DNA of 37,928 nt from a virus (taxonomy: Duplodnaviria; Heunggongvirae; Uroviricota; Caudoviricetes): IMG/VR virus record IMGVR_UViG_2703718774_000026; one strand, 5' to 3'. A program made the translations under genes and the position numbers. The notes below the pieces were generated by a model. It searched no databases, had not been told where the DNA came from, and saw only the letters and a list, made by a program, of their open reading frames with translations. Shown here one piece after another: positions 32,243 through 37,928 of the stretch (positions are counted from its first letter, which is position 1; each line of letters starts with the position of its first letter).

Positions 32243-32399
32243 AGCTTCAGCCCCTTGTATCCGTTAAATGATTCGGCAACAATCATCACCCACCACGCGC
32301 GTAATCTCACCCCTGCGCCGTTCTCCCGCCACGGCGACAACAAAAAGCAGTAACCCCCTATGCACGCACATGCGACCATGCCGCACAGGGAGGGAACAG

Positions 32400-33500
32400 A
32401 TGACCGATACCACCATGCAATTGCTCAGTCAGAGCACAGACCCCGTGAAAATGCCGGATTTTGATATTCTCGCGGAGGGGGAAACACTGTCCGGCGTGGC
32501 AGAGCGCCTGATGAGCCTGTCACTGACCGACAACCGGGGATTTGAAGCGGACCTGCTCACCATCACGCTGGATGATGCGGATGGTCAGTTGCAGCTACCG
32601 CCACGGGGCGCGCGCCTGACGGTTCTCATTGGCTGGAAAGGAGAACCGCTGACAGAAAAAGGCACTTACATTGTTGATGAAATCGCTCACGAAGGACCGC
32701 CGGACAGGCTGACTGTTTCAGCCAGAAGCGCAGATTTTCGGGATGAATTTAACGTTAAACGTGAGGTGTCCTGGCATGATGTGACCGTTGAGCGCGTGGT
32801 ATCCGCCATCGCTCATCGGTACGGTCTGAAACCACAAATCAGCGAAATGCTGATGGATATTGAAATCGACCACGCCGACCAGACCGAAGAAAGCGACATG
32901 TCCTTCCTTACGCGCATGGCGGAAATGCTGGGCGCAATCACTACGGTAAAAAGCAGTAATCTGTTATTCATCATGCCAGGCGGTGGCGTGAACGCACAGG
33001 GCCAGCCGTTGCCATCGTTCGCCATCACGCGCAGCAGTGGCGATCGCCATCAGTTCCGCATTGCTGACCGCGAAGCGTATACGGGGGTACGTGCTTACTG
33101 GCTTGATCTTAATTACGGGAAAAAGAAAAAAGTCAGCGTGAAACGCCGCAAACCGAAAAAGGAGAAAAGCAGCAGCCGTGAAGGTGACTATATGGAAGGT
33201 GCGGAAGGCAACGTGTTTGTGTTACGCAAGACTTATCAGAACGAGCAGGCAGCAAGACGTGCAGCGGCGGCAAAGTGGCAGCAGCTACAACGCGGAGCCG
33301 CATCATTCTCCATCACGCTGGCGCGTGGACGCGCAGAACTCTATCCCGAAATGCATGGCACGGTGACAGGCTTCAAAAGTGACATCGATAATCAGGACTG
33401 GATTATTGCAAAAGCCGAGCACACCATTGATAACAGCGGCTTTACCACACAGCTTGAGCTTGAAGCAAAAATCCCGGAATGGATAGCAGAAACAGAATGA
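32400..33500 (+). CDS. D: Tail protein D (P2 gpD-like), 366 aa
   Basis: LTDNRGFEAD, ARSADFR, KREVSWHD, DQTEESDMSFLTRMAE, ITRSSGDRHQFRIADREAYTGV, FSITLARGRAELY, GFKSDIDNQDWIIAKAEHTIDNSGFTTQLELE match P2 D as recalled from memory; ATG at 32400 after GGGAGGG. Confidence 0.9.
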   Translation: MTDTTMQLLSQSTDPVKMPDFDILAEGETLSGVAERLMSLSLTDNRGFEADLLTITLDDADGQLQLPPRGARLTVLIGWKGEPLTEKGTYIVDEIAHEGPPDRLTVSARSADFRDEFNVKREVSWHDVTVERVVSAIAHRYGLKPQISEMLMDIEIDHADQTEESDMSFLTRMAEMLGAITTVKSSNLLFIMPGGGVNAQGQPLPSFAITRSSGDRHQFRIADREAYTGVRAYWLDLNYGKKKKVSVKRRKPKKEKSSSREGDYMEGAEGNVFVLRKTYQNEQAARRAAAAKWQQLQRGAASFSITLARGRAELYPEMHGTVTGFKSDIDNQDWIIAKAEHTIDNSGFTTQLELEAKIPEWIAETE

Positions 33501-33899
33501 GCAAATTAGATGTATTGACTCAAACCAGAACTGACACACTCACAGCACAGTGCCAGACCCAATCTGGCAGCCCGCTTTGTGCCTAGAGCAGGTGTTGCTT
33601 ATGTAACAGTTAATCCACGGATAGTGGTCATGAATGCTGGTTGAAGTTGTATTGCCATGAGTGGTCAATTAGGGACTCACTTATTATCGCGTGCTCACCA
33701 TTGATGGGTAAGATCATGCATTTCGGCTACTGTACTTCGCGAATCCTCCGCACACAGGCAACACCTGATTTAAGAACAGAGGGAGATGATGACGCAAGGA
33801 AGATTTATTATCGTGCATGTGGCAGATGATCTTTTAGCTGCCGGAGTGATAAATTACACCTATTTTCGATAAGTGTTTTTGTTATAGAACATTAATTTC

Positions 33900-35039
33900 G
33901 TGGGAAACAATAAAGTGAAATTAGGAAGAAATGATAAGTGCTGGTGTAATTCAGGACTTAAGTATAAAAAGTGCCATCTTGGTCGAGATCGTGAAACTCC
34001 GGTATCCAAAGCCGAGGCACTGAAATTTTCAAAGTCTCTCTCGCAGAGAAAGGCATGTTATGCGCCAGCATCCATGCACGAAGATTGTGATAAACGCATC
34101 GTTCAGGCGCATACGATATCTAAGAGCAGTAGCCTTAAGGCGATCGCCGACTCCAGCAATCACGTCATGGGGGTGATAATGAACTTAGCAAGCCTGATGA
34201 GAAACAACGGAAAATGGCTTCCCGAGAAGATCGGTATCAATCAGGCATCCACTTTTACAGGATTTTGTGCAGTTCATGACAGAATCTTATTTTCATGCCT
34301 AGAGAACGAAAAATTTACAGGCACGGACGAGCAGTGCTTTGCCTTAATGTTTCGTTCATTGTCTAAAGAAATTTATGCCAAAGAAGGGGGAGTGCTATCT
34401 TCTGATTTTGCTAAAAATGCCGATAAAGGAAAGCTACAAGTTGAACAGTATTATATTCAGAAATTAATCGACCAGCACCAAAGTGGCTTAAATGCAGCAA
34501 TAATTGAATTAAATAATCTTAAAACTAGCCTCGACCGCATCCTACTTAGCAGGCAATTTTCAGAAATTGAAAGTGTTATCTTCACTTTTGCAGAGCCTTT
34601 ACCAATTGTAGTTTCGTCAATTCTTTCACCGGAGAGGGATTTCGATGGGACCAAAATTCAGGATTTGAGCGATCTTACAGTGTCGGCGGAACAAGTATGT
34701 TTCAATGCTTTTTCCTGCGGAGGTAAGGGATATGTAGTGTTCAGTTGGCTGAGAACTTCAACAATTATCAGACGTTTTATACGGACACTAATTAAGATCC
34801 CAGCTAACAGGATGTTCAATACCCTTCTGTATTTTTTCTTCACAAAGGCCGAAAATACATATTCATCCCCTGAGTGGTGGGACAGGCTCAGTGATAAACA
34901 GCGAGAGAATATCGGCAACATGATTATGTCAGGGGTTGAATTTTTTGGCAGACCTACATCACAGGTTGATCATTCCGTTGATTATAACGCCGCTGCACTT
35001 GAAGAGATAACATGCAGCAACAACGAAATTTGCAGCTGA
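33900..35039 (+). CDS. SEC-C-motif protein of unknown function, 379 aa
   Basis: N-terminal CWCNSGLKYKKCH is a SecA C-terminal-type zinc motif; rest unrecognised; GTG start; AT-rich; inserted between D and ogr. Confidence 0.6.
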   Translation: MGNNKVKLGRNDKCWCNSGLKYKKCHLGRDRETPVSKAEALKFSKSLSQRKACYAPASMHEDCDKRIVQAHTISKSSSLKAIADSSNHVMGVIMNLASLMRNNGKWLPEKIGINQASTFTGFCAVHDRILFSCLENEKFTGTDEQCFALMFRSLSKEIYAKEGGVLSSDFAKNADKGKLQVEQYYIQKLIDQHQSGLNAAIIELNNLKTSLDRILLSRQFSEIESVIFTFAEPLPIVVSSILSPERDFDGTKIQDLSDLTVSAEQVCFNAFSCGGKGYVVFSWLRTSTIIRRFIRTLIKIPANRMFNTLLYFFFTKAENTYSSPEWWDRLSDKQRENIGNMIMSGVEFFGRPTSQVDHSVDYNAAALEEITCSNNEICS

Positions 35040-35325
35040 ATGTTTACATGCTGTTAGAAAAAGCGGGCTGAACAATCATTTCGGGATTGTAACAGATAAG
35101 ATGGCACTGCCCGCTTGCTTCCCGATATGCTCAGCCAATAAACTTATGTAAGCAACCGATTTCCATTTATGCGGAGGTTATCAAAGTTGTTGGAGTTGCG
35201 AACTTCCGCTCTTCGCACAAAGCGTACCGCTAGGTTTGATTGTATTCTGGCTGCGCAAACTGTCAGTTGGAGTCTGAGCTATTACAACTTAGAATAGCGG
35301 CAGCACCACGTTAAGGGAGGTCGCT

Positions 35326-35586
35326 ATGTTCCGTTGTCCGCTTTGTGGCGCATCTGCCCGAATCCGCACCAGTCGTCCGGAAAACGATTCAAACACTGTG
35401 CGGCAAAAGTATTACCAGTGTAACAACCTGGAATGCGGCGTATGCTTCTCAACACTGGAAGCTTTCCATAAATTCACATCAAAACACGCCTCCGGCGTTC
35501 ACTCTTCGGAAGGTATCCCGTGGCATGAGCTGCCAGCTTCACACAGGGGAAACAATCAGATGAGTTTGCCTTTACCTCAGAATTAA
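35326..35586 (+). CDS. ogr: Ogr/Delta-family zinc-finger late-gene activator, 86 aa
   Basis: MFRCPLCGASARIRTSR...YYQCNNLECG parallels P2 Ogr (MFHCPLCQHAAHARTSR...YHQCQNVNC, recalled from memory); RBS AAGGGAGG. Confidence 0.85.
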   Translation: MFRCPLCGASARIRTSRPENDSNTVRQKYYQCNNLECGVCFSTLEAFHKFTSKHASGVHSSEGIPWHELPASHRGNNQMSLPLPQN

Positions 35587-35776
35587 CAGGCAGAATTGCC
35601 GGAGTAACAAAAAAACGATAGATTACCCGCGGGTGCCTTTCGGCTGATGGTCGGAGGAATACCCGAAGGCCGGATGTGGAAAGGCCCCGGAAAACATTTC
35701 TGTTTAACCGAGGCCCTAACATATCTACCTTAAGCAAGTGATAGGTTAGCGCCTCTCCAACAAAGGAGCAAGCGCT

Positions 35777-35917
35777 ATGTCGCAAAAATCGCTTACAGCC
35801 ATCACGTTCTGCGTGACGGTAATCCTCATCATCTGGATGCTACGCGGTTCGCTGTGTGAAATACGGATGAGCTTCTGGGGAGCGGAGTTTGCGGCGTTCT
35901 TACAGTGTAAGCAGTAA
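35777..35917 (+). CDS. Hok/Gef-family type I toxin-like peptide, 46 aa
   Basis: Hand-translated MSQKSLTAITFCVTVILIIWMLRGSLCEIRMSFWGAEFAAFLQCKQ: one transmembrane helix then R.SLCEIR and EFAAF, resembling Hok (RKSLCEIRY...EVAAF, recalled from memory); RBS AAAGGAG. Confidence 0.55.
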   Translation: MSQKSLTAITFCVTVILIIWMLRGSLCEIRMSFWGAEFAAFLQCKQ

Positions 35918-36037: not shown

Positions 36038-36105
36038 GGAACAATCACTAGCTAGTGTACCGTTAACGGCACATAATGCTCGCACAACAAACCTGTTAAA
36101 AGAGA

Positions 36106-36387
36106 TTACTCAGCATTCTCCTGCTTCCATTGCCGGATCATTTCATCGGTAACATCACCCTCATAACATACCACGTCATACCCTCCATTACGGCTATATG
36201 CACTGCGTCCACCACATCTACTACCATTCCTTGCATGATTATAAGGACACGCACAATTGCCTGGATAAGATTCAATGGATTCTTTAATTATTTCTTTTTT
36301 GATCTGAGCATCAGACTTTCCTGTTGCTGCATATCCACTAAAAGATACTAAACAAAGGCAGATTGCCATTAATAAACCACATCGCAT
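36106..36387 (-). CDS. Small Cys-rich secreted protein, about 93 aa
   Basis: Internal start giving signal-peptide-like MRCGLLMAICLCLVSFSGYAA; mature part has five Cys (GNCACPYNH...RCGG...VVCYEG); AT-rich; the start choice is uncertain. Confidence 0.45.
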   Translation of the reverse strand: MRCGLLMAICLCLVSFSGYAATGKSDAQIKKEIIKESIESYPGNCACPYNHARNGSRCGGRSAYSRNGGYDVVCYEGDVTDEMIRQWKQENAE

Positions 36388-36855
36388 ACCGATACACTCT
36401 ATTACTAACCAATCATAGCCCACATCATAAAATCGAGATGAGGAGTACAATACCTTTAACAAGAAGGTGTCATAACGATAATATGTCGTGCAATTCATCA
36501 AAAAAAAGATCTATATCAAAGAGATAGAACTCTTATCAGTGCTTCAGACATCGGCATTCGAGGCAGCAGAAAAACAGTAAATCTGACGAATTTGCCTTTT
36601 CCCAAGATGTTGTCAGATTAAAAAGATAGATTAGCGCAGGTACCTGTTGGTGGATTGCAGGAGGAAAAATGAAGTCGAGTGAAAAAATCCCAGAAAAATT
36701 TTTGTTTAACAGAGGTCCTGGTTCACTATGCGAAATACGGAGGAGCTGCAGAAGAATTCTGCTTCATCCTTAGAGTTTAAACAGCACGTGCACTACCATT
36801 GTTTCTGCATATCGCCACACCATCGCCACTCTACCGCCATTGCACAAAATACAAA

Positions 36856-36925: not shown

Positions 36926-37012
36926 TGGTACCCGGAGCGGGACTTGAACCCGCACAGCGCGAACGCCGAGGGATTTTAAATCCCTTGTGTCTACCGATTC
37001 CACCATCCGGGC
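36926..37012 (-). tRNA. leuZ: tRNA-Leu (anticodon UAA)
   Basis: Reverse complement reads GCCCGGATGGTGGAATCGGTAGACACAAGGGATTTAAAATCCC...GGGTTCAAGTCCCGCTCCGGGTACCA, with D-loop, anticodon loop, long variable arm and T-loop GGTTCAAGTCC. Confidence 0.9.
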
Positions 37013-37024
37013 TCGGGAAGAAAG

Positions 37025-37098
37025 TGGAGGCGCGTTCCGGAGTCGAACCGGACTAGACGGATTTGCAATCCGCTACATAACCGCTTTGTTAACGCGCC
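37025..37098 (-). tRNA. cysT: tRNA-Cys (anticodon GCA)
   Basis: Reverse complement reads GGCGCGTTAACAAAGCGGTTATGTAGCGGATTGCAAATCCGTCTAGTCCGGTTCGACTCCGGAACGCGCCTCCA. Confidence 0.9.
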
Positions 37099-37152
37099 AA
37101 ATTCTTCAGGCCTTTCAGCCAGACATCCGCTTGACGCCGATGTCTTTTAAAC

Positions 37153-37228
<76 letters not shown>

Positions 37229-37379
37229 ATTCATCAAGCAATCAGTTAATCACTTGATTTTATTATCGTCTGGCAATCAGTGCCGCCGTTCGATGCGTTG
37301 CATTCTACTTACCTGGCGCGATGAGTCAACGATATTTTTCACCACTTTTGATCGTTTGCTGAAAATTACGCCGAAACGA

Positions 37380-37928
37380 TCACTGATCAAGCAAATCTGC
37401 ACGCGCAGCGCTCAAATATTGCAACATTGACCACAGAGTCAGTACCGCAGCCACAAAGAAAAGTGCAATACCGGCGTACTCAACCCAAATGTTCGGACGC
37501 CACAGCAGCCAGGCCAACGCCACCATCTGGGCAGTGGTTTTCACTTTCCCAATCCAGGAGACAGCCACGCTACTGCGTTTACCCAACTCCGCCATCCATT
37601 CGCGTAGCGCAGAAATAATAATTTCACGGGCGATCATCGTTGCCGCCGGTAGGGTCACCCACCAGCTGTGATAATGCTCGGTTACCAGCACCATGGCGAT
37701 AGCCACGAGAACTTTATCTGCTACAGGGTCAAGGAAAGCACCAAACCGGGTACTCTGGTTCCAGCGGCGTGCCAGAAAACCATCGAACCAGTCAGTCACC
37801 GCCGCGACGCAGAAAATGAGCGCGGCGGCAAACGGCGACCAGGTGACAGGCAGATAAAAGACCAATACAAAGAATGGGATAAGGATGACACGGAACAGTG
37901 TAAGCAACGTAGGGATATTAAATTGCAT
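37380..37928 (-). CDS. pgsA: CDP-diacylglycerol--glycerol-3-phosphate 3-phosphatidyltransferase, 182 aa
   Basis: Full-length [23 protein letters not shown]...DPVADK...LLDQ with the CDP-alcohol phosphatidyltransferase motif region; followed by glyW-cysT-leuZ as in Escherichia-type chromosomes. Confidence 0.95.

Follow-up and report, generated by a model that had tools for sequence, protein, structure and literature searches.

What is a single AT-rich gene doing between the tail gene D and the late-gene activator ogr of a P2-like prophage, and how did it get there? The locus that raises the question lies at positions 33501-35325 of a viral DNA of 37,928 nucleotides (IMG/VR record IMGVR_UViG_2703718774_000026), the whole of which we call the window. 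A sequence-only reading had taken it for a foreign moron or defence gene, and we find that this is supported by its absence from P88-type relatives, by the variability of the junction and by the homology of its product to Rugutis, an antiphage protein of Lactococcus. Overall, we consider it likely that the segment is a cassette derived from an insertion sequence (IS) of the IS481 family, and that its Rugutis-family protein guards lysogens by an abortive-type response.

The locus belongs to a P88-type, P2-like prophage (genus Xuanwuvirus), within its right arm, where the minus strand encodes the sheath, tube and tape-measure proteins and D and ogr then follow on the plus strand. E. coli O26:H11 strain 11368 and many other Shiga-toxin-type strains match the window at 100% identity. 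The 1.8-kb AT-rich segment between D (stop 33500) and ogr (start 35326) is confirmed, with a G+C content of 0.37-0.47 across 33650-35150 versus 0.52-0.58 in D, the 3' end of which is 95-97% identical to P88-type phages. In P88 itself 42 nt separate the D stop codon from the ogr ATG, so the segment is absent there and represents a true insertion. The empty P88 junction reads TGA GGAACTTAGA ATAGCGAC...GGAGGTCGCT ATG and holds a single copy of a 7-mer target, AACTTAGA; the window reads TGA GCA[AATTAGA] TGTATTGACTC...GAGCTATTACA [ACTTAGA] ATAGCGGC. Alignment with the empty site places the inserted DNA at 33511-35286, and these 1776 bp sit between two copies of the 7-mer that P88 has once. The flanks and edges are as follows.

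32268-33500, plus strand: D, tail gene, left flank (Pfam Phage_GPD, E 1e-17).
33504-33510, no strand: target duplication, left copy AATTAGA (P88 alignment).
33511-33537, plus strand: left terminal inverted repeat TGTATTGACTCAAACCAGAACTGACAC, 27 bp (repeat finder and end comparison).
33511-33605, plus strand: A-end, comprising the terminal repeat, a second CTGGCAG/CTGACAG motif and a short hairpin (CCGCTTTGTGCC...).
35201-35286, plus strand: B-end (end alignments and repeat finder).
35260-35286, plus strand: right terminal inverted repeat, ...CTGTCAGTTGGAGTCTGAGCTATTACA, inside the B-end.
35287-35293, no strand: target duplication, right copy ACTTAGA (P88 alignment).
35326-35586, plus strand: ogr, late-gene activator, right flank (Pfam Ogr_Delta, E 5e-14).

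Because the terminal repeats bound the insert on both sides, we read it as a transposon-like cassette. Ungapped comparison of TGTATTGACTCAAACCAGAACTGACAC with the reverse complement of the right end, TGTAATAGCTCAGACTCCAACTGACAG, gives 19/27 matches (P ~1e-6, p=0.25), and a repeat finder independently recovers this terminal pair together with a second, inner pair, in which the inner arm of the A-end pairs with 35201-35236. The end motif occurs within the window only at 33511-33525 and 35272-35286, and alignments show the A-end to be conserved across cassettes with unrelated cargo. The element has no transposase, its lone open reading frame (ORF) of 379 residues giving no rve or HTH match, and an Rfam search of the cassette returns no match.

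Matching ends are found on an insertion sequence of a known family. Scanning one genome per species for the exact end pattern returns at least 120 loci, mostly in Enterobacterales, versus ~13 expected by chance; many of the matches listed fall on very short contigs, as is seen for multi-copy elements, and the 124 exact matches listed comprise 31 IS ends, 32 A/B cassette ends, 52 others and 9 that are cut by contig ends. Pairing of inverted matches yields a recurrent 1201-bp element whose single ORF is an IS481-family transposase (NF033577, 281.8 bits vs a cut-off of 224; Pfam HTH_29 and rve), and which is flanked by 7-bp duplications (CTTACTG, TTTAAGT, GATAATA). Full-length copies of this IS, 87-89% identical, occur in 77 E. 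coli genomes; partial matches to it are present in 5,362 of 5,426, mostly at 80-90% identity and in a median of two places. Cassettes and IS have their terminal 25-27 bp in common and an equal duplication length: perfect 7-mers flank cassettes at loci L023, L054, L071, L093 and L099, and the sister-cassette duplications read ACTGAAC, ACTCAGT, AATAATA, ATTAAAG and CATTAAA. Inward of the terminal repeat come conserved ends of ~70 nt that are particular to the cassettes, of kinds A and B, each of which holds a second CTGACAG motif and a small hairpin. To judge from these common termini and duplication lengths, the cassettes would be mobilised in trans by the IS481 transposase.

A 1776-bp unit with a single ORF, terminal repeats and a target duplication does resemble an IS, and the N-terminal zinc motif of its protein (described below) would not be out of keeping with a transposase or recombinase of the element's own. 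We regard this as extremely improbable, since cassettes with the same ends encode unrelated proteins, at times on the other strand, since the protein lacks any rve, DDE or HTH match, since these ends are also those of a distinct IS, which encodes a genuine IS481 transposase, and since Rugutis, on its lactococcal plasmid, scored as antiviral.

The cassette is also found away from phages of this type. A second copy of the Rugutis-type cassette lies in an unrelated H-NS/AlpA island of E. coli CP057555, between H-NS-like genes, where it is 83% identical over its full length, the match stops exactly at both ends, and GATAGC stands on either side. In E. coli M8, comparison of locus L140 with L008 reveals a deletion derivative of the Rugutis-type cassette that has kept the left 290 bp and lost the gene, the right end and ~145 bp of flank, and that is hence not an empty site. 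In E. coli MN06021 a same-ended cassette adjoins the integrase of a CPS-53-like prophage; its cargo (L013 4372-5367) is a 331-aa protein with predicted membrane segments and no family match in any library. In E. coli M19 (L014 3981-5378) a cassette-type A-end, just 5' of an IS256-family transposase gene, is broken by the IS256-family element, and no B-end is found within 4 kb; IS256 was considered as the parent of the cassette ends and rejected, as this element brings inverted repeats of its own and entered an existing cassette secondarily.

At D-ogr itself the cargo varies. A check of this junction in other E. coli prophages finds at least eight different cargo genes, and wherever an occupied site was examined, it contained a cassette whose ends are the same and whose cargo differs. 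Besides the Rugutis-family gene, these include the following.

D-ogr, E. coli UTME-6: 500-aa PIN_4 protein.
D-ogr, opposite strand, phage 500465-2 and ETEC4067: 340-aa protein with a weak HEPN match.
D-ogr, phage 520873: 133-aa protein.
D-ogr, E2348/69: 221-aa protein.
D-ogr, O103:H2: 527-aa protein annotated GmrSD.
D-ogr, O104:H4: DUF3800 protein.
D-ogr, NCTC9022: alpha/beta hydrolase, with decayed ends.

The PIN_4, HEPN-like, 133-aa, GmrSD-annotated, DUF3800 and 221-aa cargo are bounded by the same ends at an identical D-ogr position; PADLOC finds nothing strong in the GmrSD-annotated, DUF3800, 221-aa and alpha/beta-hydrolase proteins. With the empty P88 junction as the query, 1,200 of 5,426 E. 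coli genomes give a match and 720 carry the junction intact; because the remaining matches break at the target site, roughly a third to 40% of D-ogr sites are occupied.

Several observations speak against simple transposition. The window's two target copies agree at 6/7 positions and are thus imperfect, all P88-site cassettes occupy one site in one orientation, which also fits one old insertion followed by exchange of cargo by recombination, and no empty site was found for the CP057555 location. One can therefore picture the inverted-repeat ends as a fixed frame of the P88-type cargo slot, with cargo swapped by homologous recombination and no transposition at all: all eight D-ogr cargo types share position and A-end/B-end orientation, and the ~95-nt conserved ends would suit as recombination handles. 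We find this account unlikely. A clean empty site with a single 7-mer exists in P88 and in 720 E. coli genomes, the same ends are found outside P2-like phages (in the H-NS/AlpA island, beside the CPS-53-like prophage and in many Enterobacterales genera), they are elsewhere flanked by perfect 7-bp duplications of differing sequence, and they agree with an IS481-family IS in their outermost 25-27 bp as well as in duplication length. The frame is moreover compatible with transposition, as recombination may drive the turnover of cargo after a first insertion. Repeated insertion into a favoured target, or a single insertion with cargo exchanged through the conserved ends, may each account for the D-ogr sites. 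That the insert is an IS481-derived cassette appears very probable.

Among the cargo of sister cassettes elsewhere are the TIR protein ThsB at full length (PADLOC, E 1e-122), two HNH proteins similar to type IV restriction enzymes, and a GHKL ATPase accompanied by a lipoprotein. Most simply, these elements can be read as a non-autonomous cassette family of IS481 type, often with immune genes aboard. In Citrobacter sp. wls619 (L093 734-1666) the cargo is a 310-aa protein with no library match and an N-terminus that looks GIY-YIG-like by eye; this protein and the 331-aa one of MN06021 are candidate defence proteins. Phytobacter sp. V69 (L054 2452-2972) holds a 521-bp near-miniature element with a B-end, an A-end, a perfect CATTAAA duplication and only a 110-aa ORF.

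The gene on the window's cassette is the only ORF of credible size in it, and its neighbours vary among genomic contexts. That it is single, encodes 379 residues and starts with a SEC-C motif is confirmed, with CWCNSGLKYKKCH present as the sequence-only reading described. Its parts are as follows.

33606-33899, plus strand: non-coding leader 5' of the gene, no promoter assigned.
33900-35039, plus strand: Rugutis-family gene, 379 aa, GTG start (BLASTP, hhalign, AlphaFold (AF2) model).
33927-33980, plus strand: codons of the SEC-C zinc motif, aa 10-27, with C14, C16, C25 and H26 (Pfam PF02810).
35061-35116, plus strand: hairpin after the stop codon, with 22-nt arms that are 73% complementary and 12 nt apart.

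A second in-frame GTG at 33915 would give 374 aa beginning MKLGRN..., which is the N-terminus of most relatives. The leader is, from 33594 onward, ~83% identical to homologous loci in Salmonella and E. coli islands. Downstream, the pair AAGCGGGC (35063-35070) and GCCCGCTT (35110-35117), thought at first to be a long-range inverted repeat, is real; it is the core of the local post-stop hairpin. This hairpin is not a canonical terminator, a simple scan finding no T-run terminator 3' of the gene, and the 3' region folds no better than shuffled sequences (z -0.81).

The SEC-C assignment is firm (PF02810, E 2e-8, 34.4 bits vs a cut-off of 20.4), a profile search matches the motif to SecA C-terminal zinc peptides solved in the PDB, and the motif is recognised by Pfam in 40/40 relatives with its ligands invariant. 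Beyond it, Pfam, NCBIfam, PHROGs and PADLOC return nothing for the protein, nor does Pfam for the 40 relatives. An HNH_2-type His-Me finger and a relationship to DUF4238 were considered and set aside, with no support from domain scans or the PDB profile search. The remaining 340 residues had been called unrecognised, and the libraries are indeed silent on them; they belong, however, to a large family with a named and tested member. RefSeq names the product a "YecA family protein", and the SEC-C motif is common to SecA, YecA and YchJ, which invites the view that this is a SecA-associated housekeeping protein of the YecA kind. That view is hard to sustain and we give it very little weight: what is in common amounts to ~18 residues, N-terminal here vs C-terminal there, none of the 40 members has UPF0149 or another Pfam or NCBIfam domain, and only 80 of 5,426 E. 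coli genomes have the gene, without exception on this cassette.

The named member is Rugutis. A tblastn search of plasmids with the window protein finds the lactococcal plasmid pUCCL633A (E 4e-27), in which the target is a coding sequence of 359 aa annotated as a SEC-C domain protein, the only SEC-C protein of that plasmid. The homology takes in the C-terminal body and runs nearly full length: BLASTP aligns aa 5-347 with 3-336 of Rugutis (359 aa) at 26% identity (E 2e-37), and hhalign of 40 gammaproteobacterial against 22 Firmicutes members gives a probability of 100% (E 5e-68) over 325 columns. Common to both clades are the four SEC-C ligands; C53, C63, C123 and H126; H71 in AH(T/S)I; the motif FTGFCxxHD (C123, H126, D127); E135 and R152; an IQDL motif; W283; E318-N319; and P324/W327. 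H88 and N114 are invariant in the gammaproteobacterial clade only. C53, C63, C123 and H126 could form a second metal site, C123-x2-H126 standing at the start of a helix. On this sequence evidence the protein is almost certainly a Rugutis homologue.

Structure prediction gives a confident AlphaFold model (pLDDT 89.2, pTM 0.88) for which a fold search against the PDB finds no solved match, as for Rugutis. In the model, a small strand-and-helix region (aa 67-135) is followed by a long helical hairpin (aa 143-217), a four-stranded sheet (aa 223-284) and a helical bundle to ~aa 344. The protein is small and appears to be single-domain, with no recognisable effector domain.

The family is large, with at least 1,489 clusters at 50% identity (E<=1e-30), nearly all of 365-385 aa and of the same layout, and the protein has 296 word-indexed matches; the gammaproteobacterial clade spans Escherichia, Salmonella, Citrobacter, Klebsiella, Psychrobacter and Aeromonas. 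One relative lacks SEC-C: a 380-aa protein of Klebsiella pneumoniae MGH 78578 plasmid pKPN5 (L012 2992-4134), which adjoins a P-loop NTPase-fold gene; many Klebsiella plasmids give similar partial matches. Since the pKPN5 protein still aligns from residue 35 onward (hhalign probability 99.6%), the zinc knuckle is an add-on to an independent core. A Salmonella homologue, 86% identical and in a cluster of 524 sequences, sits in an integrase/AlpA/DUF927 island (S. enterica contig AAJPNL010000026.1, L006 5726-15694) beside an AAA_15 ATPase and DUF4435 pair, which is the PARIS domain pair; at this island locus no terminal repeats of the cassette can be recognised.

What the protein does may be approached through its tested relative. 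Rugutis is a single-gene antiphage system (pUCCL633_059 of pUCCL633A; Grafakou et al. 2024 NAR, PMC11381338; 2025 PNAS, PMC12184496) that reduces the plating of skunaviruses and phage c2, acts after DNA injection, and protects cultures at low and not at high multiplicity, which is abortive-infection behaviour. The mutations of all phage c2 escape mutants fall in the large-terminase ATPase domain, and the c2 large terminase lowers viability only in cells that express Rugutis (PMC11381338, PMC12184496). In view of these terminase data, the best-supported mechanism for the E. coli protein would be a latent toxin-sensor that is switched on by the packaging ATPase of a foreign phage. In the scenario that we propose, a non-autonomous cassette from an IS481-family IS would have entered a P88-type prophage at a 7-bp target lying between its D and ogr genes, and the cassette's lone gene would supply a protein in which a SecA-type zinc knuckle precedes a domain of ~340 residues whose fold is unsolved. 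The protein would stay idle until an infecting phage makes one of its late products, which for Rugutis is the ATPase domain of the large terminase; the activated conserved core would then arrest or kill the cell, and the lysogen population would be shielded from other phages by an abortive-infection-type response. The effector chemistry would presumably reside in the conserved core.

A number of facts weigh against carrying this over to E. coli. The family member with tested antiphage activity is the lactococcal one, not a gammaproteobacterial one; a terminase sensor would need to ignore the large terminase that the prophage itself encodes; and a simple scan of the leader finds no sigma-70 consensus match on the plus strand. 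For Rugutis itself, the mutated terminase stays toxic when overexpressed, and the assays used a high-copy vector and gave host-strain-dependent activity (PMC11381338, PMC12184496), because of which the trigger model is not closed even there. We hold it possible, though somewhat less likely than not, that a large terminase is the trigger of the E. coli protein, a proposal made by analogy with Rugutis.

The same analogy could mislead about defence as a whole, and the gene could instead be a moron for lysogenic conversion or host fitness (in stress, secretion or regulation), its likeness to Rugutis being one of fold and not of role. Identity to Rugutis is no more than 26%, some relatives are in ordinary, non-mobile chromosomal neighbourhoods (for example next to parC in Psychrobacter), cassettes of this type also carry cargo that is not defence-like (a GT2 glycosyltransferase and a nucleotidyltransferase, NTP_transf_6), and defence-model libraries give no match, PADLOC and PHROGs recognising the protein no further than its SEC-C motif. 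However, the match to Rugutis is full-length with conserved motifs, the gene is found in a prophage, in integrative islands and on plasmids, beside or interchangeable with nuclease-type and known defence genes, and the one tested family member is antiviral. A non-defence moron thus seems improbable, and by its kinship with Rugutis the protein probably defends E. coli against phages.

Other features of this prophage arm lie to the right of ogr. A hok/sok-type toxin-antitoxin locus stands just 3' of it (35631-35917), with a sok-like RNA match that, at an Rfam score of 46.7, is below the gathering score of 59, and a Hok-like ORF of 46 aa (35777-35917), whose counterparts in relatives carry host-killing annotations (Hok/Gef or MokW-like). 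A second AT-rich stretch (36050-36800, G+C 0.37-0.43) comes after hok and before the tRNA-Leu attachment end; in it a Cys-rich ORF of 131 aa (36106-36501, minus strand) matches phrog_27544, of unknown function (E 1.5e-57), and weakly matches a "membrane associated protein" moron family; it is another candidate cargo gene. At 36926-37928 the prophage end adjoins tRNA-Leu(taa), tRNA-Cys and tRNA-Gly, then pgsA. Because ihfA-pheT are the neighbours in other strains (loci L004, L135-L138), this phage type has at least two integration sites.

A twin of Rugutis in architecture, in prophages of E. coli O26, O103, O111 and O157, brings the trigger and the effector chemistry within reach of the best-equipped genetics. 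Database labels for this large family go no further than "SEC-C domain" or "YecA family", so that re-annotation could reach thousands of genes. In its widest form, our proposal would be that Enterobacterales hold an undescribed family of transposase-less cassettes, with IS481-type repeats and their own A/B ends, that ferry single-gene immunity, are moved in trans by a rare IS481, swap cargo through their ends and have taken over the D-ogr site of P88-like prophages in a sizeable fraction of E. coli, and that the Rugutis homologue is a terminase-sensing abortive-infection protein of new fold; we consider the whole of this plausible yet somewhat short of probable. If true, such cassettes would be an overlooked route by which immunity spreads, and would account for "orphan" defence genes with no visible mobility gene nearby. 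Their recognisable ends would offer an easy way to search for new defence genes, and their uncharacterised cargo (the 310-aa GIY-YIG-looking protein, DUF3800, the 133-, 221- and 331-aa proteins, and the GHKL ATPase with lipoprotein) would be a list of such genes. D-ogr, further, joins the cos-proximal hotspot as another, separate variable defence site of P2-like phages.

Mobile insertion cassettes (MICs), a concept of the ISfinder literature with MIC231 of Bacillus cereus as an example, have IS-type inverted repeats and passenger genes and no transposase. The elements described here are like MICs in having the terminal repeats and duplication length of a resident IS family, a passenger gene and no transposase; unlike them, they are of IS481 type, have extra ~70-nt A-end/B-end stretches that are absent from the IS, carry largely single defence-type genes, and in roughly a third or more of carriers occupy one P88-like prophage site. 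We found no published description of IS481-type cassettes with defence genes, ISfinder and subscription journals lying outside the search. The P2 anti-phage hotspot of Rousset et al. 2022 adjoins cos, between gpA and gpQ, with ogr unmentioned (PMC9122126). Like the P2/P4 hotspots (PMC9122126), D-ogr in E. coli P2-like prophages offers interchangeable defence cargo at a fixed backbone position, but the site is another one and the cargo comes as discrete cassettes bounded by inverted repeats. Avs is another system activated by the large terminase (cited in PMC12184496); if the Rugutis trigger carries over, the protein would resemble Avs in using a conserved late phage enzyme as the alarm for an abortive response, whereas this small protein has no STAND NTPase and no effector domain that we recognise. 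It is closest to Rugutis, as a single gene of ~360-380 aa with an N-terminal SEC-C, a homologous body with the same Cys/His/Asp/Glu motifs, a confident predicted fold without a solved relative, and carriage by a mobile element; it differs in its 26% identity, in being gammaproteobacterial and not from Firmicutes, and in travelling on a prophage-borne cassette and not on a plasmid. Taken by itself, the gene is one more, newly recognised Rugutis-family gene; its wider novelty comes with the cassette that carries it and with the occupied D-ogr junction.

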